IMG/VR virus record: IMGVR_UViG_3300035208_001055
Span: 1-56,493 of that record
From: a virus
Taxonomy: Duplodnaviria; Heunggongvirae; Uroviricota; Caudoviricetes
Strand: one strand, 5' to 3'
DNA: 56,493 nt
Position 1 is the stretch's first letter, and the number at the start of each line of letters is the position of its first letter. Positions 889 to 34,576 of the stretch are shown in pieces. The notes beneath the pieces are model-generated. The model was given only the letters and a program-made list of their open reading frames with translations. It did not search any database and was not told the origin of the DNA. Made by a program: the position numbers and the translations under genes.

Positions 889-891
889 GAG

Positions 892-919: not shown

Positions 920-2262
920 TGTAGAGAAGGGGAAACACCGTGACAGCTAATATATTCGTGGCAGAATGCGAAAAAAGACTTGTCGATCCCGCCATAGCTC
1001 TCGACAATGATTTCATCCGGGCAGCACTAGAAGAGAGGGACGACGTTCTAGTTTTGGAGTTGTTAGATAGTGAGTTTTGATTTGACAATCGCAACGTATG
1101 TAGAGAAGGGGAAGCAATGAACAGAACAGAAGCGATTTGCAAGGCATTAGGGTATCAGGGTGGCACTATCCACCAGCTTGCGGCCGAAACCGGGGTATCG
1201 GTCGAAGATTTGCTTTATGGGGTGCCAAGCGCAACTTATCTATCTTCCGACTACTCGCAAGGTTGGGCAGCGGGGCGGACGTGTTCCGTGGATTTCAACC
1301 GAACCGTAAACTTTCCCGCACACTTCGGGAACAAAGATTTCTGGCTTGGCGTTGCTATGGGCCTGATTGCACAAGGATAACGACAATGACGAAAATCTAC
1401 AAGATGCGGAATGATCGGTTTGTGACGGAATGCCCGGCTGATACGTTGTTATCGGTCCTTGCGGGCTTGCCTAGCGGGGCATACGAAACGTGGGCTAGTA
1501 GTGACAATGGTGATAAGGTCACGTTGTACCTTGTCAAGGGCGGTAAGGTTTCACTTTACGGGAAGGGATGATATGCCGGAATGTAATCACATTGCTGATT
1601 GTGCCAAGGTTTTGGGGCGTGGGGAGGATTACGTTCGTTCCACTATTGGCAAATTGATCGAGTCTAACGGTGGTAACGACAAGGCAGCATTTGCCACTTG
1701 TGCCAATGTTGTGGATATTTTGTGTCTTGAGGGAGATGAGTTAGGGGCCACTATTATGGCGTCTATAGCGCGTGCCATCCGTGGCAATTCTACTGATTTT
1801 CCGTTTGTTGTGACAACGTGGTGGATTTAACGAGAGGGATGATATGCCGGAATTGTTCAATAAGCACGATAAGCCCGACCTTGCGGGACTTACCGAAGAA
1901 GAGGCTTGGGCGCAAGTCCACGCATTTGAGGATTACGTGTACACTACCTTTTCTGACGATGATACTGTCTCTGACGAACAGTGGGATGGTATGATCGCGG
2001 AGATTGAGGCGCTTTATGCCGAATACTACGCATTGTTTGAGTGAGACGGTTGTGCATTTGTTTCCGAATGGGATGGTGGAACGGTTCACACGTCCCCGGT
2101 TTGGGCGATTAGGATACTATCGTTGGGTGCCCGCTTATTCAGAAGCACGCGCCTTAAATCTGGAATCCATGCCCCTATCGCGGTCCCAATGGTTCGACGC
2201 CGGGGCCTTGCATAGTTTCCGTTGTCGATTTCACGGTAGCAAAGAAGAAGCACGGCAAGCAA

Positions 2263-2301
2263 TGCAGAAATCTTTGCAGAAATCTTTGCAGAAATCTTTG
2301 C
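2263..2301 (+). repeat. 12-bp tandem repeat x3 upstream of a promoter
   Basis: tgcagaaatctt x3, ending 7 nt before TTGACA 2309. Confidence 0.95.
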
Positions 2302-2308
2302 GGTTTGC

Positions 2309-2336
2309 TTGACAAGGCTTTTTTGCGTGGTATAGT
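2309..2336 (+). promoter_or_regulatory. sigma70-like early promoter
   Basis: TTGACA-N16-TATAGT (extended TGG), followed by TGTAGAG. Confidence 0.85.
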
Positions 2337-2527
2337 TGTAGAGTAAGGGGAAGTAAATGGGAATGACAACTAGCACGTATGCGGCCGTCAAGGGTCCAAG
2401 TCGAAAAGACGGCAAGGTATGGCGACTTGCGGCCGTGGGCGTGGTTGTCGCAAAGGGCAATGCGGCCCGTATGCGTCAATACGTGAAGCGCAACGGCGGG
2501 GGCGTGGCGGGCTACTTTGTCTATCTC

Positions 2528-2738
2528 ACAAACCGCGAAGTAGGGGAAGAGGTGGCACCATGCAAAGCACGATGATAAGACAAACGACTTTGGCTAATTC
2601 AGATATAGACCCGAAAGAATGGTTCTTTCGATATGTGGGTGGCGTGGGGCGGTGGTACTATGGGGACGTGGATGGTTTGGGCAACAAACTAAAAAAATCT
2701 GACACCGATAAGACAAACCGCGAAGTAGGGGAAGAGGT
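2528..2738 (+). repeat. 26-bp direct repeat pair containing the RBS and flanking a small ORF (2560-2748)
   Basis: acaaaccgcgaagtaggggaagaggt at 2528-2553 and 2713-2738, each 6 nt before an ATG. Confidence 0.92.
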
Positions 2739-4001
2739 ACAACCATGAAAATTAGGGCAGTCTTGACCAGCTATAACAGTAAGCGCGATCGGTTCGGAAA
2801 TTGCTATTGGGCTTTTTGCTGGACTAGCACGGCTACCGGCCGAAAAGCTACCGGGCAGGTTAGCGGCGGGGAAAGCAATATCCGCGCTATCATCCGGGCT
2901 ATGGGCTTGGAGTCTGCGCAAGTCGCCTACAACAATGTGGAAATGGGCATAAGGGATTTCGACCGATTCGCTAAGGGCTTGCCCTACGCTGGTTGCACGG
3001 CCGACGAATTGGCGTTGTTTGTCCGCGCCGAGTTGAAACTTGCAAAAATCGCTGCAAAGTAGCGATTGCTCCGATTGTTTCGATTGTTGTAGTTCCAACG
3101 TGGTTCTAACTTGGCCGATAGGCCGCAATGGAGGTAATCATGCCGCGCGGTCCCCCGTAATCGTTACAACCAAAGAAACCCTTAGAAGATGAACAACTCC
3201 GATTTGATGCAGAATTGACACAATCAAAGAAAGTGGGGTGGCCTATGTAACGCCGGGTAAATCCGGTAAAGTCGGGCCACACGGCCCGATGAGGATTGTC
3301 CGGGTTGTATTGTGTACTTGGACTATGCTCAACGCGCCGTGTCGGATGGTTGTAGGGAAAGTTTGGGAGGTTACGATGCAATTTCAAGTTGTGAAATGGT
3401 GGCCGCAGGTTCCAACCGCGCGCCAATTGGCGACACAAGAGAAGCACGCAAGCCGGGAAGCGGCGGAAATAGAGGCGCAACGATTGCGGGAAGAAATGCC
3501 TAGTCGGCGGTTCGGCGTGGTATCAATTCAAGAAGAGGGCGAACAAAATGAAAGTATCAGTTAAGCGACTTATCCGGGTTATCGAGGATTTGCTGGGAAC
3601 GGAGGGGAGTATCCACGGCGGGAATTGCCTACATTGCGGGCGGGTTTATGATCGGCAAGGCGAGTATGCAATACCGGATGGCGGGGATTGTCCCTCCGAC
3701 GATTGCCCCTCTTTCGACGCCCGGAAAGTGTTGCGGCAACTCAAGAGGGCTGGAAATGCCAAGAGTCTACAAATCTCCTAGCGGGCGCTTGACACAACGG
3801 CGGGGCAATGGTCGATTTAGGAAATCGACCCTTGCCGACATAGGAATGGGCTGTTGCGAATCTTGCGGGCGAATCTTTCCTATCGACTTGTCAGACTTGG
3901 CGGATAGTCCGATGATCGACCCGAGAATCATAAACGATAGGCGAAAGCATTGCCCGGATTGTCGCCAACCGGGGTAGAAAAGTTTCCGTAGGAAATCCAA
4001 C

Positions 4002-4038
4002 CAGAAAATCTTGACAGAAAATCTTGACAGAAAATCTT
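4002..4038 (+). repeat. 13-bp tandem repeat (about x3) upstream of a promoter
   Basis: cagaaaatcttga x2 + cagaaaatctt; two copies generate extra TTGACA hexamers without a -10. Confidence 0.92.
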
Positions 4039-4048
4039 ACGGGTCAAC

Positions 4049-4076
4049 TTGACAAACGAGAATCATGGTGTAGACT
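4049..4076 (+). promoter_or_regulatory. sigma70-like early promoter
   Basis: TTGACA-N16-TAGACT followed by TGAATA. Confidence 0.8.
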
Positions 4077-4274
4077 TGAATATGAGAACAATCAAACTAA
4101 ACTTGACGCTAGAAGTGCGGGAAAATGCTTTCCCGTTTATGCCAATCGACCCGTGGGCCGAAGTTATCACTATCCTTGGGAGTGAGGTAAGCCGGATCAA
4201 ATGCGGGTCGATCAATTCTCATGTCCTAACTGGATTTAACCATGTTGGGCATTGTGAAATCGAGGTTATCCACC

Positions 4275-4736
4275 ATGATTAGTACAATCAATAGCAAGCC
4301 CGACGTTACGATCAATCGTGAGCAAGAGTTATACGTTATCTCTTGCGGTCGGGGCTACACTTGTCTAGGCTTTGACGTATGCCTAAAATGGGCACGGGGC
4401 ATTGCCGAATGGTTGGGCGTTCCTGAAGTCGAGCATTATTTATGTGGAACGATGGAAGCCTATGAGTTGTATGAGGAGTTATGTGTGGAAGGTCGGAGGA
4501 AGCATGATAAAACGGGTGAGCGCTGCCCCGCCCTCTTGACGCCCCAGCTTGTCGGCTTGGAAGGGAAGCGGGTGGAGGTGGTCGATTGCGACGGAGAAAA
4601 GCGGCGGTTTATCGTGGGCAAGTCTACCGGCTGGTTGCCGATACACTTGGAAATCTCACGGCGAAATTCGTCGGGCGGGTTCGGAGTGACGGGCGCGCCC
4701 TTCCGGTCGGTTCGGGTTGTATCACAAGGGAGGTAG
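4275..4736 (+). CDS. Conserved phage hypothetical protein (LTPQLVGLEGKRVEV...RRFIVGKSTGW...HLEI family)
   Basis: ORF track 4242..4736; ATG 4275 overlaps upstream stop; motif recalled from phage hypothetical proteins. Confidence 0.7.
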   Translation: MISTINSKPDVTINREQELYVISCGRGYTCLGFDVCLKWARGIAEWLGVPEVEHYLCGTMEAYELYEELCVEGRRKHDKTGERCPALLTPQLVGLEGKRVEVVDCDGEKRRFIVGKSTGWLPIHLEISRRNSSGGFGVTGAPFRSVRVVSQGR

Positions 4737-5581
4737 CATCGTGGGCGAACAGCGAACAGTAACGCATTTCCAGTTATCCGGGGACTTGTTTGCAGACTTT
4801 TCAGCCCGCAAGCCCCGCCACTGGACCGATTCTAACGGCGTGGTCTATTTCGGCACGTTGCAAGCTATTGAACGCGCCGACGGTGACGGTCGTTCTTTCA
4901 CTATCGACATTGCGAATCAAAGCGGAAAGGTGAGTATTCATGTACTTACCATTGATTAGGAAAACACAGAAGTTTCCGGTTGTGACGGTTTCGGAAGTGC
5001 AAGAGAAGTTGCCGGATGTAGAGGTTATGCACTTCGGTAACTTCTATCGGTGCAAAGTGACCGGGCGCTTTAATAAGTTTGCAACGGTCACGCCGATTGA
5101 ACCGCCGGATTGGCTTGTAGGGACTACGTGGGAATTTAGTTGGCAAGCGATTGCGCGGGCGCTTGCGGAAAAGGGATGGTTGACAACATGATAACCGAAA
5201 AAGAAGCGGGGATTATTGACCGTGGCTTGCAACAAGTCGATCAATTCCTAGCCGATGGTCCGCTATTCATGGGCGGGCCGGGCATTGCGGCGGGGCGCTA
5301 CTGTATGTGGTTGCTAACCGTGTGCAATCGGCTATGGAGTGAGTACAAGGAAAGCCACAAAGCGGGGTAGCCGTGGCCGATAGAATGACGTTGGAAGCGT
5401 GGCGGGTCGAGATGCTTGACGATATGGGCAAGTTTGTAGCCTATTGGGAAAAGATGAACAAGCATTTTCCCGAACTATTCCCAATGGAGCTATTGGCGGG
5501 GGATTGGGATGAACAATTCCGTATACATGACCCCGCTTGCGATTCTGTCGAAAGTTTTCAGAGATTTTTAGACGGGAAAAC

Positions 5582-5609
5582 TTGACAAGTCGAAATAGCA
5601 TGGTATGCT
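5582..5609 (+). promoter_or_regulatory. sigma70-like early promoter
   Basis: TTGACA-N16-TATGCT followed by TGTAGTG. Confidence 0.8.
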
Positions 5610-5677
5610 TGTAGTGTTAAGGGAAAGGAACGTATCCCAAACTTTGTTTCTGTGTACCACTTAGAAAGAGGTGTCTA

Positions 5678-5911
5678 GTGAGCGATTCGACAAAGGAAAA
5701 GGTTCGCGTGGCGGATGAGGATTTCGTCCGGGCCTACATTTCGGTCAAGTCCTATGAGGAGTTGGCCACGGTGTTGGGCTTGGAAGTCGCCAGCGTGCAA
5801 GCACGCGCCACCAAGTTGCGAAAGGCGGGCGTGCCCCTTCCGTCGTATGAGCGGAAGAAGAAGGAAATCGACGTGGCCGGGTTGACCGCGCTTATCGCGG
5901 GCAACAGCTAA
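5678..5911 (+). CDS. Small HTH-like DNA-binding protein
   Basis: YEELATVLGLEVASVQARATKLRKAGVPLP fits helix-turn-helix; resembles, from memory, a small-protein family in Planctomycetes; first gene after promoter 5582. Confidence 0.6.
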   Translation: MSDSTKEKVRVADEDFVRAYISVKSYEELATVLGLEVASVQARATKLRKAGVPLPSYERKKKEIDVAGLTALIAGNS

Positions 5912-5929
5912 GCTACTCGGCAAGGGTTC

Positions 5930-5959
5930 GCGGGGGCGTAGTGTTTGCTACGCCCCCGC
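5930..5959. terminator. GC-rich hairpin (terminator or processing site)
   Basis: GCGGGGGCGTAG-tgtttg-CTACGCCCCCGC, 12-bp stem, no U-tract. Confidence 0.55.
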
Positions 5960-7095
5960 TACCCGCGAGTCGCGTTGTAGCTAGTGTAGTGGTCGTTTTA
6001 ATCATCCTAATTGTGTATGGATGGAGGGTTCAGATGGATTGGTCCGAATTGGTCGGAAAGACAATCTCGCACGTTGACACCGAATTTGGCGTCAATGTCG
6101 TTCGGGTGTTCTGTGATGATAACACGGCGTTTGTTATCGACACGGACACGGTAGGGATAGGGGGACTTCGCTTGTATCGTCCCGTCCTATGCCCCGTTGA
6201 CGACTACCGCCAAGTCGAAAAAGTCGCCTTAAATGGCCGGGAGTAGCGAATGGTAACGGAGTTTATCACGGACGGGGTTCGGAAGTTGAAAAAGGCCGAA
6301 GATATTTCGGTTTTCCTTCCCCACCAAAGCGGACACAAGCGGGCGCTTTTAATCGTTGTTCGGGAAGATAGCCCGATTTGTTACCCGATTTCCAAGGCGG
6401 TTGCGGCGGAATTGATTGCGGCCGGGATACCGTATCAGGGATAGGGATAACACCATGCGCTTACGGTTGTGGCGATTGTTGAGGTGGTTGCGGATAGTAG
6501 AGCGCTGCCCTAATTGCGAATCGGCATGGACGGGCGGATGTTCGGACCCTGCCAGTTTGACGCATTGTATCGTGTGTGGCGACAAGGACGGCCGGATAAC
6601 GGGGTGGTGTTGGGGCCGGGCGGTTGACCCGTTCTATTGGCTGGGGCAAAGGAACGTGGCGCGGAATCTACGGAACATTGGGGAGAGGAAGTAGCATCAT
6701 GGGCAACACTTCGGACACCACGGCGGGCAACACGGCGGTCAACACCACGCGAGAAAAGCAAATCCTAGCCTATGCGTTGCGGTTTCTGCTTTCCAATATC
6801 GACGAAACCACGGCCGACGACTTAGGGGCCGGGGCCGACGCCTTAGAGCTAGAGGTGAGCGCCCTAGCGGCGCAATACGAGTTTGTCGGGTGGAAAGCGG
6901 CGGTCAACGGGGCCGGTAATCGCCCGTGGTTTGTTATGCACCATGAGGACCGACGCTATCATCAGGATAGGCGGGGGAATCTTGTGCGGTATGCTTCCCA
7001 TGAGGCGGCGGAACGTAAGGCGGTGGAGTTGAACCGATTGCAAGGGTAGTGTGACCCCGCGCGATCGACATTTTGAGAAAATCTAAATACGGGAT

Positions 7096-7123
7096 TTGAC
7101 AATCGCAGTCTGTGGTGTAGACT
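7096..7123 (+). promoter_or_regulatory. sigma70-like early promoter
   Basis: TTGACA-N16-TAGACT followed by TGAATAG; GAGAAAATCT box upstream. Confidence 0.82.
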
Positions 7124-7173
7124 TGAATAGTTAGGCAAACGACAACTACAACACAGACAAGAGAGGTGAGACA

Positions 7174-8133
7174 ATGGCAAAGAGACAGAAGTATGTACAT
7201 ACGCCCGATATGGTTGCCCACTTGTGGGCGCACCAATCGCAAGAGGCGGCACGGACGGCGGGGAGTGGCCGGTTGTATTTCGAGGGGGACACGATTTATA
7301 GTTACGGTTCCCACTTCCCGATTGCCCGCCACATCAAAAAGGGCAGCAAGCGGGCGGTGTTTTTCACAACCCGTAGCTACAGCATGACCACGGCCGGGCA
7401 CAAAAATTGTGTCTATGGGGCGTGTTCCCACTTGACCACGTTCCATGTCCACGACATTTACGGCGGGCACAAGGTACATCTTGCCGAGTACAAGCAACGC
7501 CTTGCCAACTTGCAAGCCGACTACGCCAAAGCGCGCGGCCGCAAGCCGGAATACCTTAACCTGATGGAGCAAGCGGTAGCGCAAGCTAACGAATATGCGG
7601 CCTTTTTCGGCCTGAAAACCCGGTTTTCTTTGCCGGAAAATGAGAAGGAAATGCGGGAAGAGTGCGCCCGTGTGACCGTCCGCAATGCCGAGATAGCGGA
7701 AATCCGCCGGGTTCGGAATGAGAAGGAATGGGAAGCGGCCCGTATCCAGCGGGAAAAAGAGGCGGCGAAATGGGCGGTGAAAAACGAGAAACTATTGCGG
7801 GCGTGGGTTGACGGGGAGAGTAACGAGTTGCCCCGTAACATGCCGTGGGATGCGCCGGTGCGCTTGCGAATCGCCGGGGAAGAGTTGCAAACCACTAAGG
7901 GCGCGGCGGTTCCCCTTGACCACGCTATCCGGGCCTTTCGCGTAATCCAGCGGTTGTATGAGCGCGGCGAAACCTACCAGCGCAACGGGTACACTATCCA
8001 CTTAGGCCATTTCGCCCTCGATAGCATAGAGGCGGATGGTACTATCGTGGCCGGTTGCCACCGGATTGCACGGGCCGAAGTGGAACGTATCGCCAAGCTG
8101 GCAGAATCGGCCGGGTTGCTGAAATCGGCCTAG
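7174..8133 (+). CDS. Conserved phage hypothetical protein, 319 aa (VAHLWAHQ...YFEGDTIYSYGSHFPIAR family)
   Basis: Long ORF with RBS gagaggtg, central coiled-coil-like segment, directly after promoter 7096. Confidence 0.85.
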   Translation: MAKRQKYVHTPDMVAHLWAHQSQEAARTAGSGRLYFEGDTIYSYGSHFPIARHIKKGSKRAVFFTTRSYSMTTAGHKNCVYGACSHLTTFHVHDIYGGHKVHLAEYKQRLANLQADYAKARGRKPEYLNLMEQAVAQANEYAAFFGLKTRFSLPENEKEMREECARVTVRNAEIAEIRRVRNEKEWEAARIQREKEAAKWAVKNEKLLRAWVDGESNELPRNMPWDAPVRLRIAGEELQTTKGAAVPLDHAIRAFRVIQRLYERGETYQRNGYTIHLGHFALDSIEADGTIVAGCHRIARAEVERIAKLAESAGLLKSA

Positions 8134-8158
8134 TGTCTGTGTCGTTGCCGGGGACCAC

Positions 8159-8191
8159 TACAACCGGGCGGGAAATGCCCGCCCGGTTGTA
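8159..8191. terminator. 14-bp perfect hairpin after the 319-aa gene
   Basis: TACAACCGGGCGGG-aaatg-CCCGCCCGGTTGTA; no U-tract. Confidence 0.6.
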
Positions 8192-8524
8192 CTCCCTGCA
8201 AAATTCGGAACAAGGGAACATCATGTACGCAATCGAAGATTATCGAAGAGCGCCTAGCGGAGAGGGGCCGTTAGCGGCGGAGTGGAAAGACAAGCCCCAC
8301 CGCCTGATATACGACTTGTGCAAGCGTGTGGAAGCGCTTGAAAGCAAGGGGTTCGGTTGCCATTGTGACCTTGAACCCGGAATGCAACCGGATGGTTGCG
8401 TATTGCTTGACGGGGTGGCCGATAATTGCGTCTATGCCCAACGATTGCGGGAAGAGGGCAAGGGGCCGTCGGCGTGTGAGTATTGGCGACCGATACAACT
8501 CTCCGATGAAACTGAAAAAGCGAC

Positions 8525-8552
8525 TTGACAAACCCGGATTGTAGGGTATACT
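8525..8552 (+). promoter_or_regulatory. sigma70-like early promoter
   Basis: TTGACA-N16-TATACT followed by TGAATAG. Confidence 0.85.
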
Positions 8553-9893
8553 TGAATAGAATGGCAAACGCAAACCTAGAAGCCTTGACCGCCGGTTACA
8601 AGTATCGGTTGGAAATCCATACCGCCAACTTGGCACGGGCGGGTCATAGCTTCCACACGTCGAAAGCGACGGCCCGGAAAGAACGGGATGCGTTGCGGAA
8701 AACCGGGTTTGTAGTTTCCTTGTTTACGATCAATAGCGTTGGCGGGTTGGAACCTACAACCTGCTAACTCGCAAGGGTCGAAAGTGGAATTGCGTAGGCG
8801 CGGGCGGATTGCGACCCCGCGCCACCCAATACCGTGCGGGGCGCAATGCGGAAGCGGACGGCCCTTGACCGAACAGAGAGGTTGTGATGGAAAAGAAACC
8901 CCAGCAAGAGTATCATATACGTGTCCCAATAACGGGCACACGAATCTTTCGGGTCAAGGCCCCGTCGCCCGGCGTTGCGGTGCAATCGCTGTTGAACGGG
9001 GTCTATGTTGACCAACGGGATTGCGTTTTGGAGGATTTGGATTACAACAAGTGGGACGTGCGTAAGGCTTAACACGGAGAGAACGAGAATGTCGAAAGTA
9101 TCGAGCAAACTGGTTGCGTTGGATAGCACGCTTGAAAAAGTCTGTCGGGATTTGCGGGATCAGCCGAACCCGATACGTGTAGCGTACAAACTACTCGATA
9201 CGGCTTTTTCGATTGTGCCGAGTGAGCAAGCGGACGTTATCCGCAAGGTGACGGCGGCGAAAGAGGGTTGCGAAGTGTTGGCCGATATTGCGTGGTGGGC
9301 ACGGCATACAATCGACGAACCGACAACGGCGGAGTTGGCCGAAGCGGTAATCAAAGAGTTGTCGCCACAAGTGGCGTTGTGTATCCCACTCATAAGCTAG
9401 TCATAGGTGCAACGGTGGAAGCGGAACGTAGAAAGTTGTTGGGTGAGTTAAGCACCGCCCGCCTACTGACGTATGAGCTAGAGCGGGCCTTGCACGATAC
9501 GCCGAAGGGCAAAGAGCGCGATTGGATTGCGCGCATTATCGCAATGGAAGATCAAAGGGCGGCGGAGTGCGAAGATTCGCTTGCGTGTGTCCAACCGTAG
9601 GCGAATAGTTCCCGAGAAAATCGAGCGGGGAAAATATGGACCCTCCCCTTGACGTAGTTCAGCGGGCGTTATACCTTGGCCGTGCCGAGATTGCAGACTT
9701 GGAACGGATGATCGAGGAAAGCAAAGATAAGGGCACACGTCGGCGCTTGACATCGGTGCTATCGCAAGTTGACCAGCGCGTGTCATTTTTACGAGACAAG
9801 TTACCGGGGGCGAAAGGGTTCGATGATGACGGTTGCACTTGATGCGTCGGTTGTATCGGTTGAAATCGGTCAATTTAAATCTCGGATTTGGAT

Positions 9894-9921
9894 TTGACTT
9901 TCCCGGTTTCTGTGGTATGAT
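9894..9921 (+). promoter_or_regulatory. sigma70-like early promoter
   Basis: TTGACT-N16-TATGAT (extended TGG), upstream of ORF 9939. Confidence 0.8.
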
Positions 9922-9938
9922 TAAGGTAGAGGTGAAGC

Positions 9939-10298
9939 ATGAAACAAGCAACGAAACAACAATGCGAAACGACGCCGGTTATCTTCCGGGTGTGGCGGGA
10001 AGATGGAAAAGATCAAGAGGTCTTTGCATTGTTCCCCACGATCCCAGCCGACAACTACGGCTACCTTGTCACGTCCTACCAGCACGTCGGGCAACATTGT
10101 AGCGCGGACTACAGCGCGTGCATTGCCCATTCTCGCCGGGCTTTCATCGGAGAGTATGCTGATTTGTGGAGTGAGTTGGAAGCCATTGGTTACGAGAACA
10201 TGCAGGTATTCCAACGGCAAACCCCGCAAATGCGGCAACGATGCTTGGAAGCGGCGGAAGGCCCATCACTGTCTACTACTCTTGTGAGGGCCGGATAA
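9939..10298 (+). CDS. Conserved phage/MGE hypothetical protein (VIFR.W...ALFP..PA...SYQHVGQH...YADL..ELE.IGY family)
   Basis: Motif recalled from phage early proteins; RBS gaggtg. Confidence 0.7.
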   Translation: MKQATKQQCETTPVIFRVWREDGKDQEVFALFPTIPADNYGYLVTSYQHVGQHCSADYSACIAHSRRAFIGEYADLWSELEAIGYENMQVFQRQTPQMRQRCLEAAEGPSLSTTLVRAG

Positions 10299-10825
10299 TG
10301 AGCAACCATGTTCGATTTCACTTTCTAACGGGCGACGTGAATTTCACGCAACACGGCGGGAAGTGGATAAGCAACAAGTTGAACAATAGCGAATTTGATT
10401 ACTACCTTGTAATCGAATTGATGAATTGGCACGAGTTGGGGTATGAGGAACAACCCAAGTATAACGTGTGCCTATCGGCGGTGTCGCCACGACAAGCGGG
10501 TGAGGAACACTTGCAGCGGGCGTATGATTGCGTAGGCTTGACGCCCGATACGCTTGAAAGTCTCAAGGCTAGTGGCAACCTTGCGGAAGCGCAAGTCGAA
10601 GCGCTTCACTCTTACGGTGGCGTTGCCCCGGTGTGGCAAGATGACGGCAACAATTGGAAGTCCCTAATGCAGAAGGCACGGGCCGAAGCGCAGTGTTGTG
10701 AGGGGCTTCTCGGATTCTATCTTGACCGCCCCGTCAACCGGATCGGTGAAACGGGTTGGGAAGCGTTGCGAATGGCAGATACGCGCGAAGTTTTGGACCG
10801 TGTTCTAGGTGAGGTGACACAATGA
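10298..10825 (+). CDS. Hypothetical protein
   Basis: ORF track 10241..10825; ATG coupled to upstream TAA. Confidence 0.75.
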   Translation: MSNHVRFHFLTGDVNFTQHGGKWISNKLNNSEFDYYLVIELMNWHELGYEEQPKYNVCLSAVSPRQAGEEHLQRAYDCVGLTPDTLESLKASGNLAEAQVEALHSYGGVAPVWQDDGNNWKSLMQKARAEAQCCEGLLGFYLDRPVNRIGETGWEALRMADTREVLDRVLGEVTQ

Positions 10826-11362
10826 CACAGACTCTTGACCAGCTTGTCGAGCGACAGATTTGCGAACAAGCCACGGGTTGCCACGGGGCCGGGGACTTTC
10901 GGCGGTGGGCAGCGCAACAAGGCTACCAGTTTTGCGAGGTGTTCGATTGGACCAGTAGCGCCGGGGATTGGTCGTTTATCGTGTCCAAGGACGGCGAAAC
11001 ATGGTATCTGATGTTCCAAGAGAACAACTACCCACGGGGCGGGTTCACTCGGAATATCTCCGATGTTCCTATCGACTTGCAAGGCCCTGCCGAAGCGGTC
11101 CTAGAGTACGTGGCCGAATTATGCGAACTAGGAATACCAGTAGGAGTCTAATGGTGAAAGGCGAGTTGCGTAGCACTACATACCGTGGCGGGAGTTGTGC
11201 GAATTGCGGGAAGCGGGTAGGCCCGTTCCCTCAAATCGGACATCTCTATCGTTACGGTCGGCGTAGCCTTGACCGGGTTGGGAAGATACTTTGGCTGAAG
11301 GGCCGGTATTGTGGGTGGGGCTGCGCGACCGAAGCACAACGTAAACTAGGAGTTGACATACT

Positions 11363-11767
11363 GTGACGCGCGACGAGTTTCTAGCATTGGACGACTTCAC
11401 GAAAGCGTACATCATTTGCGCCTTGTGGTCAACGAACGATGAGTCGGATGACTCGGGCGGCGACCCCCTGGACCAGAACTATGAGCCAGAGGACATTGAC
11501 CCCGACACCCTCAACCGAATGGTGGAAGACTGCCAACAATTCCAACGGGAAAATTCCGGCGACCTTGCTTTGTACGCCAGCCCCGAATGGACGCCCGCCG
11601 AGTTAGGAGGGCACGATTTCTGGTTGACCCGCAATGGCCACGGGGCCGGATTCTGGGATCGAGATTGCTTGCCCGAAGAGGCGGGCAAGCGGTTGACGGA
11701 AGCCAGTGAAAAGTTTGGAGAGTTCGATTTGTACGTCGGTGATGATGGAGTAATCTACAACTTCTGA
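11363..11767 (+). CDS. Acidic conserved phage early protein (GHDFWLTRNGHGAGFWDR family)
   Basis: Hallmark motif GHDFWLTRNGHGAGFWDR; RBS aggag. Confidence 0.8.
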   Translation: MTRDEFLALDDFTKAYIICALWSTNDESDDSGGDPLDQNYEPEDIDPDTLNRMVEDCQQFQRENSGDLALYASPEWTPAELGGHDFWLTRNGHGAGFWDRDCLPEEAGKRLTEASEKFGEFDLYVGDDGVIYNF

Positions 11768-14052
11768 GAAAGGGCGAAAGATGAGTCGGAAACATTTCAA
11801 GGTGTTTGCCGCAAGGATCGCGGAGATTGAGGACTTGGAGGAACGGCAACGCTACGCAAGTTTTGTTGGCGAAGCGTGCGCCGAGTGCAATTGCAACTTT
11901 GATTGGTCGATTTGGTTGTCGGCCTGCGGCGTCGAAAGAAAGTGAAGGAAAACGAGGGACCAATGCACACGTTTACTTGTGAAGTTTTAGAGACGGTTGT
12001 AATCCGCAAAATCTACACGGTGGAAGCGGAGACGCCGACCGAAGCGCAGACTATGTTGTGCGACGGTGAGACTACTTCCGAGGTCGAGGTGCGCGTGGAA
12101 GAGGTTATCGAACGCGACCCCGATTTCAGCACCCTGGAACAGGAAGACTAGGATCGCAATGGAAGACTTGACGAAACGAGTCGGTCAACAGGTACGCGCG
12201 GCAGAAATGATGCTGGCACAAGCCCACATCCAAGCCCGGCAACCCCAAGCTAAGATAGCACGTCGATACTTGATCGGTATTGTCTACTATGGGGACCGGG
12301 TGCTTGCCGCAATACGCGACGGTGCGCCACACAATGCCTACTTGGACGCATTCGAGCAAAGCGCGGCATGGTCGCATGACGCCTTAGTCATGTTGAAAAA
12401 CGGTTGCTGTTGCGACCCGCAAGACTTGGACCGGAGATAATAATGCGACGACCGAAAGGCTGTACCCACTCAACTTGTGAGGGCGGAGAGTGTCGAAAAT
12501 GTCCGTGGAATCCTCAGTTTGACTACTGTGGCTTTCATCTCTCCTCCCCGCGCGGTGAGGTGCGCCATCCGGGTTGGCTTATCTTTGCCATTGGGATACC
12601 GGCCGGGCTTGTAATGACGACGCTATCGCGTAGTGGCAGCTATGCAACGGGATTCGTTCTGCTTGTGACGGGCGGGCTGGCGTTTTTGCTGGCACGGTGG
12701 CTAGTCCAACCGACCGAGGAAACTTCCCCTGAAAATCCAACAACGCAAAATACGGAGTGACCATGAAGAAGATCAGGCCAAGTAAAAACAAAGAGCAGTG
12801 GCCCCGACAAAAAGTAGCGACGGTGGATTGTCGAGTGAGGGATTTGATCGTCCGCATTACGGATTGGATGGACGATAAAGACGAACCCGCATACGACGTG
12901 GAGGTTTATGTCGGCGGCGTGTACGACTGGAATCTTTCCCAGAGTTTCACGTTGTCGAGTGGGCTGACAAAGAAACAATGTCGAGCGAGTGCGGTTGACT
13001 TTGCGAATCGGCAGATTGCCAAACTTCTGTAGGAGCGAACCAATGACGATTGACGAATTGATGTCAGCGTTGCAAAAGATGCGTGATGAGTCGCCTCTGG
13101 GCGGTGAGACTGTGGCGCTTGTCTGCATCCCCATGCTGGAATACCAGCCGATTATCGGAACTTGTCTCGAAGCAAGTAGCGACGGGGCCGTAGCGTTACT
13201 CGATATTGAGGATGTAGTCTGATGAATTACGTCAAAGACACATATCCAGACGGCGAGTGCCCCGACTGCGGAGAAGAAATTTCCGATGATGTGGTCAGCG
13301 GGGAAGAGTGCGAAAATTGCGGGCACGTCTTTTTCCTCGACCACGAGGACGATGATAGTGACTCCGGCAATGAGTTCATTGGTTGGGCCTTGGGGACAGG
13401 TTTATTCTAGGAGACATGACCATGAGTAACGTAAGTGACCGACGACGCCGGATCGAGTCGGAAGTACAGAAAGACTCCCGAGAACTAACTTTTCAACTCA
13501 TCTATGAGTGGGTGAAGACCGGCGTGTGCAGCTATCGTGAGTTCTTGGACTTGTTAAACGTGGCGACTTTCTGGGGGTGATACTATGATACGAGTTGAAT
13601 GCGACGGCTCCATTGTTCGCGTGTTGTGCGAACGTAGCAAGAAGGTAGAGTATGATATGCCCATTAGCATTGTCAACGGCGGTTACGTTGAAATGCCGTT
13701 GATTACGCGACGGGTAACACTCTCCCTTGAACAGGTGCAAGAGTTTATTCGGGCGCTGACTTTTGCGGCCGAGTTGTCTGGTAAACGAATCGAGATTGAA
13801 CACTGGGGTGAAGTATGAGACCGAGGACACTGACGATTTGGGTTGTCGGGCTAGTGCTGGGTTGGACGATTGGCATGTGGTGGTGTGGGACGTTCGCGGC
13901 CCCGCCGTCGCAGCAACCGCCGATTACTCAACGATAGCGATTTTTCTCCTGGCCAACCGTGGGAGGAATTTCTCGTGCGGATTTTAGGTTGGAAAATCTG
14001 ACTTGAAATTGACTCGAAAACTGATTCTACTTAACACCGTGAAAGGGCTGCG

Positions 14053-14754
14053 ATGTACGGCGATAAGTTCTATGATGCTACAGCATTTGCCGGGGTTGTT
14101 GACAACGTAATCCGCAACCTCCGACCAATTGACTTTGATGTAGTCGTGTTTCGTGGCTTCTCCGGTGCTGTAGTTGGCCCTGTGGTTGCCTTGAAAATGG
14201 GAAAGAATTGGGCCTTTGTCCGAAAGCACGATGACGACTCCCATAGCAGCAGTCGGATCGAGGGTTCGATCATTGGTCGCTATGTGATTGTTGACGATTT
14301 CATCGACTCCGGGGCAACAATTCGCAAGATCATAGAGGACGTTAGCTACACGTATCCAGATGCCGTGTGTCTCGGGGCATTCTTCTACGACCAAAGCTGG
14401 CACAGTCGTGCTGTTGCCGGTCCATATAAAGACCTATTCGAGGATAAGTTGCATGGGCTGACTTCCATCTTGAATTGGCAACCGCCCGCGAGCCACGAAG
14501 GTACAAAGAAGATGTTGGAGCGGCGACTACGGGAGTGGGTGATGGCTGATGCACGGAATCGGTCATCGCAGTACAACTCCGATAGGCCGCGCAGCATCGA
14601 CCCCGAGGATTGGCGGATCATGGTGGGTAATGCTGAGTCCGGCGCATTCTTTGACGATATGATGAAACGTACAAGCCAGGGTATCACACCCTATCTTGCT
14701 CCGGCCGGTCTAGGTAAGACATTCGGCATGGACCCGGCCGCACTTAACCAATGA
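14053..14754 (+). CDS. Type I phosphoribosyltransferase-family protein with C-terminal extension
   Basis: PRPP-binding loop YVIVDDFIDSGATI, upstream VFRGFSGAVVG and FVRK motifs. Confidence 0.85.
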   Translation: MYGDKFYDATAFAGVVDNVIRNLRPIDFDVVVFRGFSGAVVGPVVALKMGKNWAFVRKHDDDSHSSSRIEGSIIGRYVIVDDFIDSGATIRKIIEDVSYTYPDAVCLGAFFYDQSWHSRAVAGPYKDLFEDKLHGLTSILNWQPPASHEGTKKMLERRLREWVMADARNRSSQYNSDRPRSIDPEDWRIMVGNAESGAFFDDMMKRTSQGITPYLAPAGLGKTFGMDPAALNQ

Positions 14755-15071
14755 GGAAATCAATGAAGAAACAGACGACGAAACAAATGAACGACTTACG
14801 AGTCTATTGGATGGTTTGCATTCCGGGCGGGGAGTTCTTTGTCCCGGTGCTGTCCTTGGCCGAGGCCACAAAGATACTCGACACGTTAGCGGACTACACC
14901 AATTTCCTCATTGAACATGGGCACCTTACGGATGAGGCCAACACGTCGGGCGTGGAGGAGTTGGTTGACGGCGCTTGGGTCGAGTGGGAGGACGCCGACT
15001 GCAATAACATCGGCGACTTGACATTCGAGGAAGTGCTTATCGCCGACGCGAATCGGCGGAGGGGGACATAA

Positions 15072-15553
15072 GATGTCCCTTTACGCATGTCAATTCTGTG
15101 GCGGCGGACTGGAAGCATCCTTGCTTCTTCTCGTGACCGGCGGGTGGGCGGCGCTTGGTGCCCTTCGGCTGTGGGTTTATAAGAGTGCCCATAAGAGAGC
15201 GTGTAAACGCAACAAGCAACACCCCACGGACGGGTAGTAGCTTGCAGGCGCTTCTTTGCCAGGATGTAGCGCCCTGGCGCTACTCCCCGTTGGTAGGATA
15301 TGTGCCGACGCCCCGCCGACGCCCCGCCAACGCCCCCGACTTCTCACAACAAACCGGGTACTTCTCACAACAAGAGGGCCGACGCCCGACCGACGCCCGC
15401 CGTCGCCCTACTTCGCGGTCGGTGCAGGTGGTGCAGGTGGTGCAGGTGGCGCAGGTGGAGCGGCCCGGCCGAACGATTGGCAGCTAACCGCTAAGAGGAT
15501 GAGTAGAACACTCAGTAGAACTAGAAGGTGGGAGCGGATCATTAGCAGGTCTC
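15072..15553. other. Convergent strand-switch junction, repeat-rich and probably non-coding
   Basis: + genes end at 15071, - genes end at 15554; contains cgacgccc(c)g repeats, cttctcacaacaa x2, 9-bp ggtgcaggt x3-4, and palindrome GTAGCGCC-ct-GGCGCTAC (15266-15283). Confidence 0.7.
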
Positions 15554-18500
15554 CTAGCATTCAAGTAGGGCGTCACGGACCAGACCCGCGAGGAGCGTGA
15601 TATTAGGGTCAAAGTCGTCGTGGACTTCATCGGCTTGAGCCACGACCATCTCTACGAGAGTAAGTGGTCGTGGAAGAACACGGCCGAAGTCTAGCCCACA
15701 AGACAGGCAGATATTTCGACGGTCCTTGTAGAGTGGTTGCTTGTGCTTGCAACTACAGCAGGTAATCATGCCGAGATAGGCGTCGGTGTGGGTCATTTCG
15801 TGTCAGTCTCGCATCAGTCTTTGTACGCTTCCGCTATTCGTTTCATGTCGTGTTCCATGTCGCGCTGAAGCCACTCAGCTTTGCGCTGGCGCAATTCTGC
15901 CGCCACTCGACACTTAGGACACTCTTCTGCCCCTGAATTGAACCAGGGGCCAAGGTAGGTCATGGACGTGATATTGATGGCTTGTGGCGTCCACTCGGGA
16001 CCGCAGCGGGGGTCTAAGAGAGCGGCCTTGACAAGCGGGGCGAGTTCGGCTACGTCCTCGCCGTGGCCGGGGCCGAATGTGACCACGGCGTCAGGACACT
16101 CTACCCCTCTTGGGCCAGTATACTTAACCAGATAGGCGGATGACATCGCGTGCCTCTAATGTGCCTCTAATGGGTTACGTGAAAAACCAACGAGTGACCC
16201 ACCACGGCCAAGTCATTGCGTCGTAGAGTTGGTTCGGCGTGTAGAATAGGACCACGAGATAGGCATAGAGAACCATGAGCGCCCACCATATCACAAAGGT
16301 GATACCCGCGAGAATCAATGGAGATTTCCACTGGCGTCTTTTCCGCATGGTTATCGCCTCTCGCGGGTTGGGAGTGATTTTGGCCGGATGGTTGGCCGGT
16401 TCCGCCGGGCAGACTTTCCGAGGGCAACGGCTTCAGCCTCAGACATTACGTGTACGCATTCTTCACAGTAGTGCTTGTCGTCTAAGACACTCCACCCGAT
16501 GCTTTTAAGATAGGCGGGCACGTTGCGCTCATCCCATCCGTTGCGTGCAATGGAAGTCAGTTGAACTTGCTCGACATGATGGCAGCCATCGCAGGTTACG
16601 TCGATGTAGGCGTCTGAGTACATGGCTTCCCTTTCTCACCATTGGGCAACACGGAGGGCGGCATACCATCAAGATCAAACACGATTGTCAGCTTCCCATC
16701 CTTCATGTAGGGACCGATTCGCTTTCGTATTTCATCTTCTTCGACCTTGTGCCCGTATGCGGCCGAGTGAACAAACTCCTGCAAGTCCATGTCGGGCTTG
16801 ACGACGATAACAAAACGTCTCATACCAACTCCTCCATATAAGAGGCGGCTATCTTGTCGGACATCTCGCCCTCGAAAGTCGCCCCGCAAGAACAAGTCAC
16901 AGTGAATAGGACGATAGCGCCGAAGTATGACTTCGCATACCGACCGCCACCTTCCTCGATTTGCTCGATACCAGTGTCTTCGACTTCGAGTTCGTGGTCA
17001 CGGTGTTTCTCGGCAAATTCACTCGGCAGATCAAACTCTAGGTCGAGATTGGCTTCTTTGAGTTCACCGCCGCAGTCAGCGCAACAGCGAACGAGTCGCA
17101 CGGTTGCCCGCACAACATCACAATCGACTTCGATACTATCGAGTTCCGGCTCTTGGAAATCCAAGGCCACGAATTTATTGCAGTCGGGGCATCGCATGAT
17201 TTTAGTCCGTGTAAGGGATGCTGATTTGGGTTGGCGGTTCCTTCCCCTGTTTCAAGGCTTCCTTTGTCTTTCGACGGAGTTGCCTTGCTTTTTGTTCCGT
17301 CTTTGTTTTGCTACCAGCACGGTGGCGACCGTTTCGGCAGGCTTTACAAGAGCAGAATTTGTATTCTTTGCTCATGGTCATTTGTTAGAGGTCGAAATGC
17401 TTGCGTAAGAATAGGCCGAACACAAAGATGGCGAGTATGCACCCAATAGTTGGCGGGCAAGTCACAATGATCGCCACGATTAAGGCCGCGATGAACAAAA
17501 TCAGTAGGAGGCAAAGACCGACGATTGCTCCTAAGAGAAAGGTGAAAATGATGTCGAGAATCCAATTCCAAACTGGTCTCATTGCTTCGACTCCAATTCT
17601 CCACCGCCGAGTCGGGGACTGAGAATCATCATCTCGGGTCCGAGAAGTTTCTGCGCTTCTTTGATACGATCCTTGTGGATGATAACAGGGATATAGTCGT
17701 CCGGGTAGGCAATGATTCGACTGACATGGAATTTCTGCCTTAGCGTTGTGCATTGCTGGTTCACGTCACGCCCATCGCCCGCATAGGAGGCCAGTAGACA
17801 GTCAACACCGTCCGGGCCGTTCACGATGGCAGTTGGTGACGCCTCTTGCGGATTGGCACTGCTGATGGGCAGGGCAAATGCGAGAACAGTCGCCAGCATA
17901 AGGACACAAACGCTACAGCACAGGATACATCGTCTCATAGTCGCACTCATGGTAACACTCCTAGTAAAGGGTTCGTTATTGAACGGGGTTCCAGTCAAGA
18001 TGGTAGATGGTTTTGACGCAATGGCCACGGCGGATGTCGCGGTAGGCATTGTACAATTGGTTGCCGACTGGGGACGCGATACGCGGACCCAAAACGGTCA
18101 ACAACTTTTCCTCGGTCCAGTTTTGAGCGATTAGCTCATCAGCTAGATCGGCGACAGGGTTGGTATGCTCGATCCTATCAAGTTCTTTGTGCAGATCGAG
18201 TACCCTTGGCTTCTTCTGTTGTGGTATCATCGTAGCATTCCAAGTAACCAAGCCAGACACATGGCGACGGTAAGCGCCAAGCCTACGGGCCAGAGGGCAT
18301 GGATTTTGTTGGTTGGTTTTCGAGTTACGGTTCGAGTTGCAATTCGGTTGTGGCGGGGTTGTGCTTGAAAGTCCTCGCGGTAGGCCGGGGGCGTCTCTTG
18401 GACTACTTTAGGCGACGGCCGTGGTGTCAGGTTTTGATCGACGCTCACAAACGCAGCCCACCACTCATCGGGAATGTCGCGTGGTTCTACCCTTATTAGG

Positions 18501-21743: not shown

Positions 21744-21771
21744 ATCATAGCACACTTTTCAAGAAAGTCAA
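21744..21771 (-). promoter_or_regulatory. sigma70-like early promoter
   Basis: TTGACT-N16-TATGAT followed by TGTAGTG. Confidence 0.85.
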
Positions 21772-21772
21772 G

Positions 21773-22231
21773 TCACCGCGAACAATTTTCTCGATTTTCC
21801 GTCTGCCAGAGGCTTGTCTCGGTATAGTCGCCCTTAATCGGGAAGATGCTGAATGTTTTGTAGGGAATGACGGTTGTGACGCGCGTATCAATTACAGTGA
21901 TACTGCCGAGGCGGCGGGGGACTTCCTTGAAGGCGACAGTCGGCTTGACCCCGGCCAACGCTCCGGCCTTGATGATTGCCTCCCTCGCCCTGTCTAAGGC
22001 TTCCTGTTTGCTTCGGTTCTGGTCAAAGGGATTCTCTTGCCGATTATCATTCACGGCAATGTCACGGGCCGCTTGACTAACGGCGCACTGAATGACATGG
22101 CGGACCATGATAACACGTCCGAACGCAATCATGCCAATGACCAGTAGCAGAAAGAGCGGGCATACTAATGCAAACTCAACCGCAGCAGCACCCCGTCGAT
22201 TTGTTCTAGTCCCGATTCTAGTCCCGACCAT
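21773..22231 (-). CDS. TadE/TadG-like minor pilin (Flp/Tad pseudopilin)
   Basis: Prepilin cleavage motif RRG|AAAVEFALVCPLFLLLVIGMIAFGR (G|xxxxE plus hydrophobic helix), then A..AAR; RBS ggag before ATG 22231. Confidence 0.88.
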   Translation of the reverse strand: MVGTRIGTRTNRRGAAAVEFALVCPLFLLLVIGMIAFGRVIMVRHVIQCAVSQAARDIAVNDNRQENPFDQNRSKQEALDRAREAIIKAGALAGVKPTVAFKEVPRRLGSITVIDTRVTTVIPYKTFSIFPIKGDYTETSLWQTENRENCSR

Positions 22232-23508
22232 ACAAAAGTTCTCCGTTGACATAGGCTTGTTCGCACGGGGAGAGTTCATGGACAAAACTACCGAGGCCGG
22301 TGCCCCAATACATCCATACGTAATCCTGCCCCCAGAAAATCTCCGTCTCGAAACCGTTGGAAAGCCAACCGACTGGTGTACCGACGCCGAGATCGTTTAG
22401 GTAATTGCAAGCGTCGTCGAGGTCGGTGAAACTTTCATGCGCTCCGTCATCACCAACACGCACCCAGATCAGCATTTTCGTCGCCCTTTCGAGTCTATAT
22501 CAAGGAAGGCGATAAAGTTTCCATGCCTATCGACACGAACATCTCGCCATTCCAATGTCTCTTCTCCATTTTGGTGCATTAAAGTTTCAACTCTGGCCGC
22601 AAGTCGTTGCAACTCGTGGTTTCGTCGTTTCGTCGAGAACGGTAACAGCGTCCCGTCTTCAAATCTATCGGTTACGTGCCCATTTCGATGGACGATGACG
22701 CCGATAGCCAATGCACCTGTGTGTGTATCATCAATATCAATGTACGCAGTCAACTCATCATCACTGTGACACTCGCCGGGGTCGAGCAATTCGGACACTG
22801 AAAATGCCCAATACTCACGCCAGGGGCGATTTCGATTGTATCGTGGTGACTTCTTTCTCATGGTATCGCATGTTCAGAAGTTAGGTACGTCGTCGGCCAT
22901 CGTGGCAGCGGCATTATAACCTGTCCATGCGACTTCCTTGAACGCCGCTTGTAATGCGCCGGGCATTGCTGCGTACTTTCTCTCTTGCGTCTTCCACCAC
23001 TTCTCGAAACCGGGGCAGTATTCCGGTAATCCCGGTAGGGTGGTTTTTAATTGATGTGTTTGATAATCCACAGTGTTACCCGATTGTGATGTTGTGGGTT
23101 GGTTCGTCTCGTTCGGAGTCGGCGTAGACGACGAGTTTCAATACCCCGTCGCATAATTCGAGAACGCCTACGAGTCGGCTGTCCCCGTTGTCGTCGCATC
23201 CGGCGAACAGGCAAACTCCATCGGGGCGTGTGACGACCTTGACTCCTTGAAGTTCGCTGCGGCCTTCGAGTACATCTTTCAGGAAGATGTAGGATTCGGT
23301 TCGATTTGTCATTGGTTTACTCATTGGTTTACCCTTTTCTACTGTACGTGTTTCGCTACCTTCGACTCTTTCCAGGTCGCATCATCCTTGTCGAGTGCGT
23401 GTCGGCCACGGCGACGGCCGTAGCGTTTCATCCGTGAATAGGACTTCCGATGCCCTTGGTTGACTTTTTCTTCTCGGTCAGATCGACTCATCTTACAACC
23501 TCGCTTGA

Positions 23509-34221: not shown

Positions 34222-34576
34222 TGGAGGCGGCGGGAATCGAACCCGCGTCCCACGATGTTTCCATGAAGGCATCTACGTGTGTAGCCGATTGATTTCCGCC
34301 TTCGCTTCTCTATCCCCTGTCGGCCGGGTTGCAGAGTCGCTAACCGATGTTGTTTAACCTTGGCTTAGTCGGTGTCGGCCGTGGCGATCCCGAATTGTGG
34401 CCGGTAGTCAAGTCTCTCGGGCGAAGACTCTCAACCGGGGCAACCTATCTCTAGGCTGCCATTGCAAAACTAGGTTTGGCAATTAAGGTTTTATAGTCGG
34501 CTTTTTACGTGGCCCGCTGACCAACCACGACACGCCTCCTGCATTTCCTTCATCTGGTCGAATCCAATTCGCCCCC
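34222..34576 (-). ncRNA. ssrA: tmRNA; tag AKPSFAMAA* at 34480-34451; no encoded CCA
   Basis: 5' GGGGGCG...GATTCGAC, 3' GCGGG-TTCGATT-CCCGC-CGCCTCC-A with G3.U70; resume context TTAATT-GCC; tag ends in hydrophobic-AA. Confidence 0.95.

Follow-up and report, generated by a model that had tools for sequence, protein, structure and literature searches.

An orphan TadE-family pseudopilin with Planctomycetota affinity in a 146-kb tailed phage: a candidate mimic of the host minor pilin

Background

Tad pili are among the most widespread organelles of adhesion and surface sensing, and they serve as receptors for several phages. To our knowledge, all phage countermeasures to pili known before 2026 acted on the motor, and almost no phages of Planctomycetota have been characterised. 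Here we describe a gene for a TadE-like pseudopilin in a 56,493-nucleotide stretch of DNA (the window), which is the first 56.5 kb of a 146,090-bp virus record of IMG/VR (IMGVR_UViG_3300035208_001055). The gene stands alone in the phage genome and its product may imitate a minor pilin of the host.

Both TadE and TadF depend on the TadV peptidase and are required for pilus biogenesis, and the class-III signals of Flp, TadE and TadF are cut by peptidases of the TadV type (Tomich et al. 2006, cited in PMC12075869 and PMC12637624). The minor pilins TadE, TadF and TadG have been modelled as an exchangeable tip complex that primes extension of the Tad pilus (PMC12075869). In Caulobacter the TadE/F homologues CpaJ and CpaK are assigned to the tip together with the TadG-like CpaL, which is the proposed receptor of PhiCbK (PMC12637624); the Caulobacter Tad pili have roles in surface sensing, adherence and cell-cycle control (PMC11067988).

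Among the phage inhibitors of type IV pili, Tip and Aqs1 act on PilB, Zip on PilZ and PfsE on PilC (reviewed in PMC11656802 and PMC11436027). A different principle was described for F10-like prophages of Pseudomonas aeruginosa, whose P-FimU replaces host FimU at the tip of the type IVa pilus and blocks tip-binding phages (Sztanko et al., Cell Rep 2026; PMC12952977). The same study reports that overexpressed FimU disrupts pilus assembly, and that PilA-like genes are carried by virulent phages, where they may act early against superinfection. An earlier note on the present DNA, made from the sequence without database searches, had stated that known phage pilus inhibitors mostly target the assembly ATPase; with P-FimU, a phage-made minor pilin, that statement is out of date.

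The gene and its prepilin signal

The open reading frame (ORF; product P0001) lies on the minus strand, with its ATG at 22231-22229 and its TGA at 21775-21773 (Table 1). The same ATG was chosen by a separate gene call on a strain variant described below, and the in-frame alternative starts upstream (ATG 22252, ATG 22279 and TTG 22285) would merely give a longer leader. The precursor begins with MVGTRIGTRTNRRG followed by AAAVEFALVCPLFLLLVIGMIAFG, the cleavage context being RRG/AAAVEF (the slash marks the cut). It carries a short basic leader, Gly at -1, Glu at +5 and a hydrophobic stretch, the features of a class-III signal; hydrophobicity peaks in a 19-mer (residues 20-38) with a mean Kyte-Doolittle value of 2.65. 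The intact prepilin cleavage site and transmembrane helix which the earlier note had read in this ORF are thus both present.

Gly14, Glu19, Pro25 and Gly33 agree with near-invariant columns among the 102 nearest family representatives, the cleavage-site Gly being present in 100 of these. Based on a six-frame scan of the 146-kb genome, the pattern G-x4-E-[hydrophobic] followed by a hydrophobic helix occurs once, in this ORF, and is therefore not a chance motif. A mis-called fragment of the overlapping plus-strand ORFs (21867-22076 and 22092-22400) was ruled out by the Pfam score, by the synonymous bias of the strain differences and by the homologues.

Family membership and predicted fold

The profile search that the earlier note had proposed gave a match to all 43 positions of the Pfam TadE profile (PF07811), well above the curated cut-off (E 1.1e-14; 54.7 bits against 22.9); against the six-frame translation of the genome the same profile scored 57.1 bits at this ORF. 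The related Tad (TadE/G) family PF13400 matches it weakly. Similarity extends beyond the profile, as the phage protein aligns over its whole length with cellular TadE proteins of similar size, including the C-terminal VT-V-(I/V)P(Y/F) strand and the terminal Glu. An alignment of the phage clade to 40 Planctomycetota TadE sequences by hhalign gave a probability of 99.5%.

An AlphaFold2 model built from 106 sequences (mean predicted local distance difference test score, pLDDT, 89.7) has an alpha1 of 50 residues, followed by another helix and a sheet of three strands. The order of elements, alpha1-alpha2-three strands, is the same in the model of a Planctomycetota TadE (locus L020; pLDDT 92.5). 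All 30 of the AlphaFold DB cluster matches listed had a probability of 1.00, with template modelling (TM) scores up to 0.65, and every named one was a TadE/TadG or pilus-assembly protein. Foldseek searches of the model against the PDB and BFVD returned nothing at E <= 0.001 in either, and searches of PHROGs, NCBIfam and PADLOC gave no meaningful family. As modelled, the product is a whole TadE-family protein with the full pilin-like fold, and not just its N-terminal motif.

An orphan gene in a complete phage genome

The record is rated 100% complete by CheckV and encodes a gpA-type large terminase, a tape-measure protein, a family-A DNA polymerase (PolA) and a DUF5906 primase-like protein, which confirms its phage origin. 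Searches of all six frames of the 146-kb genome for the T2SSE ATPase (PF00437), the T2SSF platform protein (PF00482), Peptidase_A24 (PF01478) and Flp_Fap (PF04964) gave zero matches, while the TadE and Tad (PF13400) profiles match this ORF alone. The earlier note's claim that no other tad or pil genes are present therefore extends, for these six families, from the window to the whole genome. The set that marks a Tad/Flp locus (tadV/cpaA, tadA/cpaF, tadB/C, rcpA/cpaC and flp alongside) was not found, the secretin family lying outside the genome searches. The possibility that the DNA is a host chromosome island with a tad locus nearby is contradicted by the complete phage genome, in which no tad machinery genes were found.

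The TadE gene is thus an orphan, the sole pilin-type gene of a complete tailed-phage genome. It has what defines a minor-pilin mimic at the level of genes: it is a phage-borne homologue of a bacterial minor pilin in a genome without genes for pilus machinery.

No tyrosine integrase was found in the phage genome, and the phage is probably virulent. The sole recombinase found is a serine recombinase of 263 aa (L198; Resolvase domain, E 3.7e-27), a size which fits an invertase or resolvase better than an integrase.

Origin in Planctomycetota

Cellular TadE genes were collected by a pattern-plus-tblastn scan using one genome per species, and 79 cellular loci from the best 80 matches were kept. Among these best matches the great majority are from Planctomycetota, namely Pirellulales, Thermoguttaceae and Planctomycetaceae. 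Planctomycetota genomes hold two to eight TadE-family genes each. In locus L020 the gene order is tadE-cpaB (RcpC/SAF)-cpaC (secretin)-tadZ, with the TadE gene first, and the pattern of gene sizes is the same in L021 and L026; in L011 the order is tadE-tadE-tadG (vWA). The cellular relatives of the phage gene are true pilus genes.

A maximum likelihood tree, which the earlier note had named as a further check, was computed from 83 mature sequences and 132 columns; many of its forks are open and the exact sister group of the phage proteins is not fixed. The phage TadE clade is monophyletic (support 100/100) and is nested in a clade of 69 rows, all but one of them Planctomycetota (92/85). Its stem measures 1.74 substitutions per site, which is very long beside a median of 0.3 for the terminal branches. 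Tree and alignments together are strong evidence that the phage gene derives from a Planctomycetota TadE and has strongly diverged from it. The earlier note had seen in the gene a pointer to a planctomycete host. For the donor lineage this is borne out, both by the position within the 69-row clade and by relatives that head tad operons; for the present host the evidence is indirect, and a planctomycete is likely.

Close relatives and maintenance

A 6.2-kb contig from a different sample (L192) represents a syntenic strain variant, 97% identical to the phage. Its TadE gene differs by six synonymous and two non-synonymous changes, a ratio of non-synonymous to synonymous change per site (pN/pS) of about 0.11. 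The two amino-acid changes, G7R and R13H, both fall in the leader, and the 138-residue mature part is identical. Judged from these differences, the gene is kept under purifying selection.

An exhaustive HMMER search of 1.84 billion cluster representatives revealed only two closer relatives, P0004 (55% identity) and P0005 (40%), for which a later alignment gave identities of 54% and 36%, respectively; below them in the ranking, from E of about 1e-10 on, come TadE proteins of the ordinary kind. The alignment of the phage clade has 45 invariant positions, including the clade-specific motifs AVND, VPTV-F and IPY--FS--P. The contigs of P0004 and P0005 are 0.6-2.8 kb long and hold small ORFs and no tad genes. 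On the 2.8-kb contig of P0004 a single small ORF separates TadE from a cyclophilin gene about 570 bp downstream, and the cyclophilin family is also represented in the phage; the flanks of the two contigs have no similarity to the phage genome. Both relatives are likely phage-borne. A single-protein scan of IMG/VR with the phage TadE found no relative, and a scan of the JGI metagenomes found only N-terminal matches of cellular type and no new member of the phage clade.

TadE genes on other viral contigs

An alignment-based scan of IMG/VR identified TadE-like genes on six viral contigs. One of these is a complete 106.5-kb genome with terminal repeats, in which TadE is adjoined by a TadG-like gene. 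On contig L091 (L091:5024-12245) a TadG (PF13400 plus DUF7305)-TadE pair and two small ORFs (174 and 73 aa) are located between the parts of a split DnaE, the PHP/NTPase/finger part of the DNA polymerase III alpha subunit lying upstream of the pair and the HHH_6 part downstream. A third viral family carries a lone TadE beside MoxR-AAA, DUF2201 and ArdC-like genes. The T2SSE ATPase was absent from all five of the TadE-bearing viral contigs searched. Apart from one weak match (27% identity, L088), the flanks of these contigs have no similarity to the present phage, and in the tree their TadE genes are placed among Pseudomonadota and other phyla, outside the Planctomycetota clade. By gene content and tree position, orphan Tad pseudopilins recur in phages, in early or replication regions, and are of polyphyletic origin; this speaks for a selectable function.

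The same observations bear on the idea that the gene is a neutral passenger, a host gene which the phage acquired by accident, does not use in infection and has so far kept. Host-derived genes are numerous in large phages, and the phage TadE belongs to no PHROG family and found no match by tblastn in 50,697 deposited phage genomes, all of which would suit a passenger. Such a gene is hard to reconcile with an intact ORF that has a Shine-Dalgarno motif and a coupled start, with the low pN/pS and a mature part unchanged between strains, or with three diverged clade members which share specific motifs and an insertion. Moreover, the stem length implies a long stay outside cellular genomes, and other phage lineages have acquired TadE independently. 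We regard this as the least likely of the rival explanations and as very improbable.

Differences from cellular TadE proteins

Residues were compared with 65 Planctomycetota TadE sequences (aligned with MAFFT) and with the nearest 102 representatives of the family. Gly-1, Glu+5, Pro+12, Gly+20, Arg+26 and Arg+43 are kept in the phage clade, from which two charges of alpha1 conserved in the family, an acid at +23 and Arg at +39, have been lost; the phage protein lacks them in the comparison with the 65 Planctomycetota sequences as well. At precursor position 36 (mature +23) the clade has A/A/N/N, as against E or D in 94 of the 102 representatives and E in 62 of the 65 Planctomycetota sequences. 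At precursor position 52 (mature +39) it has S/S/F/N, as against R in 81 of the 102. We infer that in cellular TadE these two residues contact neighbouring subunits.

The phage clade has also gained surface. A clade-specific insertion, seen as a gap in both alignments (Table 1), lengthens alpha2, which spans residues 68-90 (23 residues) in the phage model and 62-75 (14) in the cellular one, and the beta1-beta2 hairpin is longer as well (11+13 against 5+9 residues). Extra surface segments of the P-FimU type are thus found relative to a Planctomycetota TadE, which may not be the host's own protein.

These changes raise the question of whether the pilin scaffold, with its prepilin-type signal anchor and small globular domain, has been repurposed as a membrane-tethered periplasmic protein unrelated to pili, which might act in the timing of lysis, inhibit an envelope defence or occupy the peptidase as a substrate. 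Consistent with this, no clade member has the acid found at +23 in >90% of relatives or the Arg found at +39 in about 80%, the branch leading to the clade is very long and the phage has no gene for a TadF/TadG partner, unlike the pairs in L088 and L091. The pattern of what was kept speaks for a pilin, however: the residues of processing and alpha1N packing (Gly-1, Glu+5, Pro+12, Gly+20 and Arg+26) are all retained, and so are the C-terminal sheet motifs of cellular TadE (VT-V-IPY and the terminal Glu). Neither do recognisable lysis genes adjoin TadE, and there was no PADLOC match. Repurposing of this kind appears unlikely to us.

Neighbourhood and promoters

TadE is the final gene of a run of small ORFs, the last of the four upstream members overlapping its start by 14 nt; further small ORFs lie beyond. 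The same four upstream ORFs are present in the strain variant, and none of the ten ORFs around TadE has a Pfam or PHROG match. Near-identical promoter-like sites with the sequence TTGACTTTCTTGAAAAGTGTG(C/G)TATG(A/C)T are found at 23536(-), 21771(-) and 20564(-), the first of them upstream of the run and the second immediately after TadE. In their longer form they read TTGACTTTC(T/C)TGAAAA..GTG(C/G)TATG(A/C)T, with a 16-nt spacer and a TG extension. Extended -10 sites (TTGAC-N16-TATnnT with the TG extension) number eight in the genome, as against 0.05 expected from shuffled sequences. Promoters of the host sigma70 type ahead of ORFan mini-genes are typical of phage early regions. The earlier note had placed the gene among early genes and promoters; this holds for a promoter-rich block of small ORFans with strong sigma70/extended -10 sites, while the early timing is what such a block suggests.

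The promoter-like sites are on the plus strand in the first 17 kb and on the minus strand afterwards, so that transcription of the two arms would converge near 17 kb. The same early block holds a 133-aa ORFan with the N-terminal hydrophobic segment MRNILRMLPPLCVLGLGIVIGYW, which may be a second envelope-targeted early protein.

Table 1. Coordinates of the TadE gene, its parts and other features (window positions are those of the genome)
Feature	Position	Strand	Remarks
TadE-like pseudopilin, coding sequence (P0001)	21773..22231	-	152 aa; PF07811 match; AlphaFold2 pLDDT 89.7
Leader peptide MVGTRIGTRTNRRG, residues 1-14	22190..22231	-	Net charge +4; ends with Gly-1 of the putative class-III (prepilin) cleavage site
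Mature N-terminus AAAVEFALVCPLFLLLVIGMIAFGRVIMV	22103..22189	-	Glu+5, Pro+12, Gly+20; hydrophobic alpha1N helix; Ala at precursor position 36
Insertion PFDQNRSKQE, residues 68-77	22001..22030	-	10 residues; specific to the phage clade; lengthens alpha2; MAFFT, hhalign gap
Shine-Dalgarno-like motif GGAG	22241..22244	-	9 nt 5' of the ATG, within the 3' end of the upstream ORF; read from sequence
Four packed co-oriented small ORFs (82, 65, 130 and 85 aa)	22218..23324	-	Between the 23536 promoter and TadE; no family match
Upstream promoter-like site TTGACT-16-TATGCT, TG extension	23509..23536	-	Probably drives the small-ORF operon ending in TadE
Next promoter-like site TTGACT-16-TATGAT, TG extension	21744..21771	-	Starts 2 nt past the TadE stop; marks the end of the coding part of the unit
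Eight extended -10 sites	window 5582, 9894	+
	window 20564, 21771, 23536, 34166; genome 131816, 140586	-
ORFan with hydrophobic N-terminus	24377-24778	-	133 aa
Full-length tmRNA	window 34219-34576	-	Rfam RF00023
Ro60/TROVE protein	genome 59006-60694	-	L002:3006-4694; just past the window
Cyclophilin-type peptidyl-prolyl isomerase	genome 127858-128241	-	L197
Serine recombinase	genome 130096-130887	-	L198

Other features of the genome

A full-length tmRNA was identified (143.9 bits with the Rfam model), for which ARAGORN gave the tag peptide AKPSFAMAA. It is adjoined by tRNA-Glu, one of three tRNAs in the genome; tRNA-Gln and tRNA-Asn lie further on. By blastn the tmRNA is matched over its full length at 68-71% identity in a few Planctomycetota genomes, but only Planctomycetota were searched, so this is not counted as evidence on the host. 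The genome also encodes a Ro60/TROVE protein with a vWA domain (E 1.7e-66 and 6e-42) and a cyclophilin-type peptidyl-prolyl isomerase (E 4.7e-45).

Positions 1-17000 of the window hold short ORFs only under the standard code and have a marked positive GC skew of 0.15-0.21. An alternative genetic code was considered for this region, and reading TGA, TAG or TAA as sense opened no long frames. In appearance it is a set of very small genes in one block, rather than recoded DNA.

Proposed function

We propose that the protein is a phage-made mimic of the host TadE minor pilin which enters or blocks the Tad/Flp (type IVc) pilus and thereby removes or masks a receptor, a reading to which we give about an even chance. 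The gene would be transcribed by host RNA polymerase early in infection and the product inserted into the inner membrane. A prepilin peptidase of the host (TadV/CpaA type) would then cut after Gly14, since the phage genome has no prepilin peptidase of its own. The mature protein would compete for the position of host TadE in the complex of minor pilins by which the Tad pilus is primed and capped. Given the lost charges at +23 and +39 and the longer alpha2 and beta-hairpin, the resulting complex would either fail, putting an end to pilus production, or work and yield pili whose tip is altered. In both cases the infected cell would lose a Tad-pilus receptor or have it masked, and further phages, the phage's own progeny included, would be kept off the occupied cell.

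The earlier note had suggested a dominant-negative pilin that jams or alters the host Tad pilus for superinfection exclusion; the sequence would suit a poison subunit of that kind as well as a functional replacement which masks the tip. As to which of the two outcomes is to be expected, poisoning is somewhat favoured by the strong promoters and the loss of conserved residues, and the retained docking features and enlarged surface elements resemble P-FimU. Carried further, the first of these leads to a chain-stopping poison pseudopilin: the protein would be processed and would dock in the priming complex, but would lack the +23/+39 contacts, so that an early burst of it would stop Tad assembly within minutes, and unrelated phages that infect Tad-piliated bacteria would have arrived at such poisons several times over. 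The receptor would then be removed at the level of the subunit, unlike the silent tip replacement of P-FimU or the action of motor inhibitors. We put this forward tentatively and consider it doubtful.

The same molecular evidence (the PF07811 match, the fold and the tad relatives in Planctomycetota) would be expected if the phage acted through the Tad machinery on the behaviour of its host. In a budding or stalked planctomycete it might change how cells adhere or sense surfaces, or alter the swimmer-to-sessile switch; infected cells kept attached, or kept unattached, could favour virion production or dispersal. The roles of the Caulobacter Tad pili in surface sensing, adherence and cell-cycle control (PMC11067988) would fit such manipulation. 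However, no regulator or adhesion gene stands alongside TadE, all of its neighbours being ORFans, and the only phage minor pilin studied by experiment left pilus function intact and acted on adsorption (PMC12952977). We think it quite improbable that manipulation of behaviour is the role of the gene.

Several points weigh against the proposal of a pilin mimic which excludes other phages. Processing, membrane insertion, incorporation into a pilus and an effect on adsorption are all deduced from sequence, and we infer early expression from promoter type and from gene content and neighbourhood. Exclusion presupposes a Tad-piliated host as well as phages, this one or its competitors, which use Tad pili. 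The loss of two conserved residues could equally mean that the protein has no pilus function at all. As to the clade itself, the contigs of P0004 and P0005 are too short to prove that they are phage-borne, and relatives of the terminase (42-69% identity) were found only on contigs of <=50 kb which end short of the TadE region.

If the pilin-mimic proposal is true, receptor mimicry by a phage-made pilus subunit would widen from type IVa to Tad (type IVc) pili, and would take in, beside temperate phages of Pseudomonas, a large and probably virulent one of Planctomycetota. The two lost residues and the clade insertion offer a natural mutant series for the contacts that let Tad minor pilins prime or cap a pilus, and the TadE gene can serve as a host marker for an otherwise unassignable phage lineage.

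Comparison with known systems

In the literature no paper was found on a phage-encoded pseudopilin of the TadE/TadF type. The cellular proteins nearest in kind are the TadE/TadF of Aggregatibacter, CpaJ/CpaK of Caulobacter and the KilL/KilM tips of Myxococcus, with which the phage protein has in common the Pfam family, the G/xxxxE-hydrophobic signal, the size and the predicted fold. Cellular TadE/TadF genes are located in or near tad loci with TadF/TadG partners, whereas the phage gene is alone, and its product lacks the +23 acid and the +39 Arg and carries the alpha2 insertion.

With Tip, Aqs1, Zip and PfsE the phage TadE would share the outcome, a pilus receptor lost or changed on the infected or lysogenic cell. 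Those inhibitors are small non-pilin proteins which bind cytoplasmic or platform components, while the phage TadE is itself a subunit of the pilin family. The PilA-like genes of virulent phages and of Xylella prophages (PMC12952977) are closer, being phage-carried pilins, non-temperate phages included, with a proposed early role against superinfection. They differ as homologues of the type IVa major pilin, some cut down to the N-terminal helix, and their function is likewise proposed.

The closest described system is P-FimU. Both proteins are lone phage homologues of a bacterial minor pilin, would rely on the machinery of the host, and have diverged and gained surface segments. P-FimU is a FimU/GspH-like pilin of the type IVa system, the present protein a member of the Tad/type IVc family. 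P-FimU is expressed from a prophage at a host-like level and the pilus stays functional, whereas here strong promoters of early type precede the gene in a 146-kb phage with no recognisable integrase. The phage TadE, which unlike P-FimU is known from genes alone, has in addition lost two family-conserved charged residues, and this makes a poison mode as likely as silent replacement. The principle of a phage minor pilin was thus already published in 2026 for type IVa pili, and the new part is its Tad/type IVc counterpart in a large phage linked to Planctomycetota.

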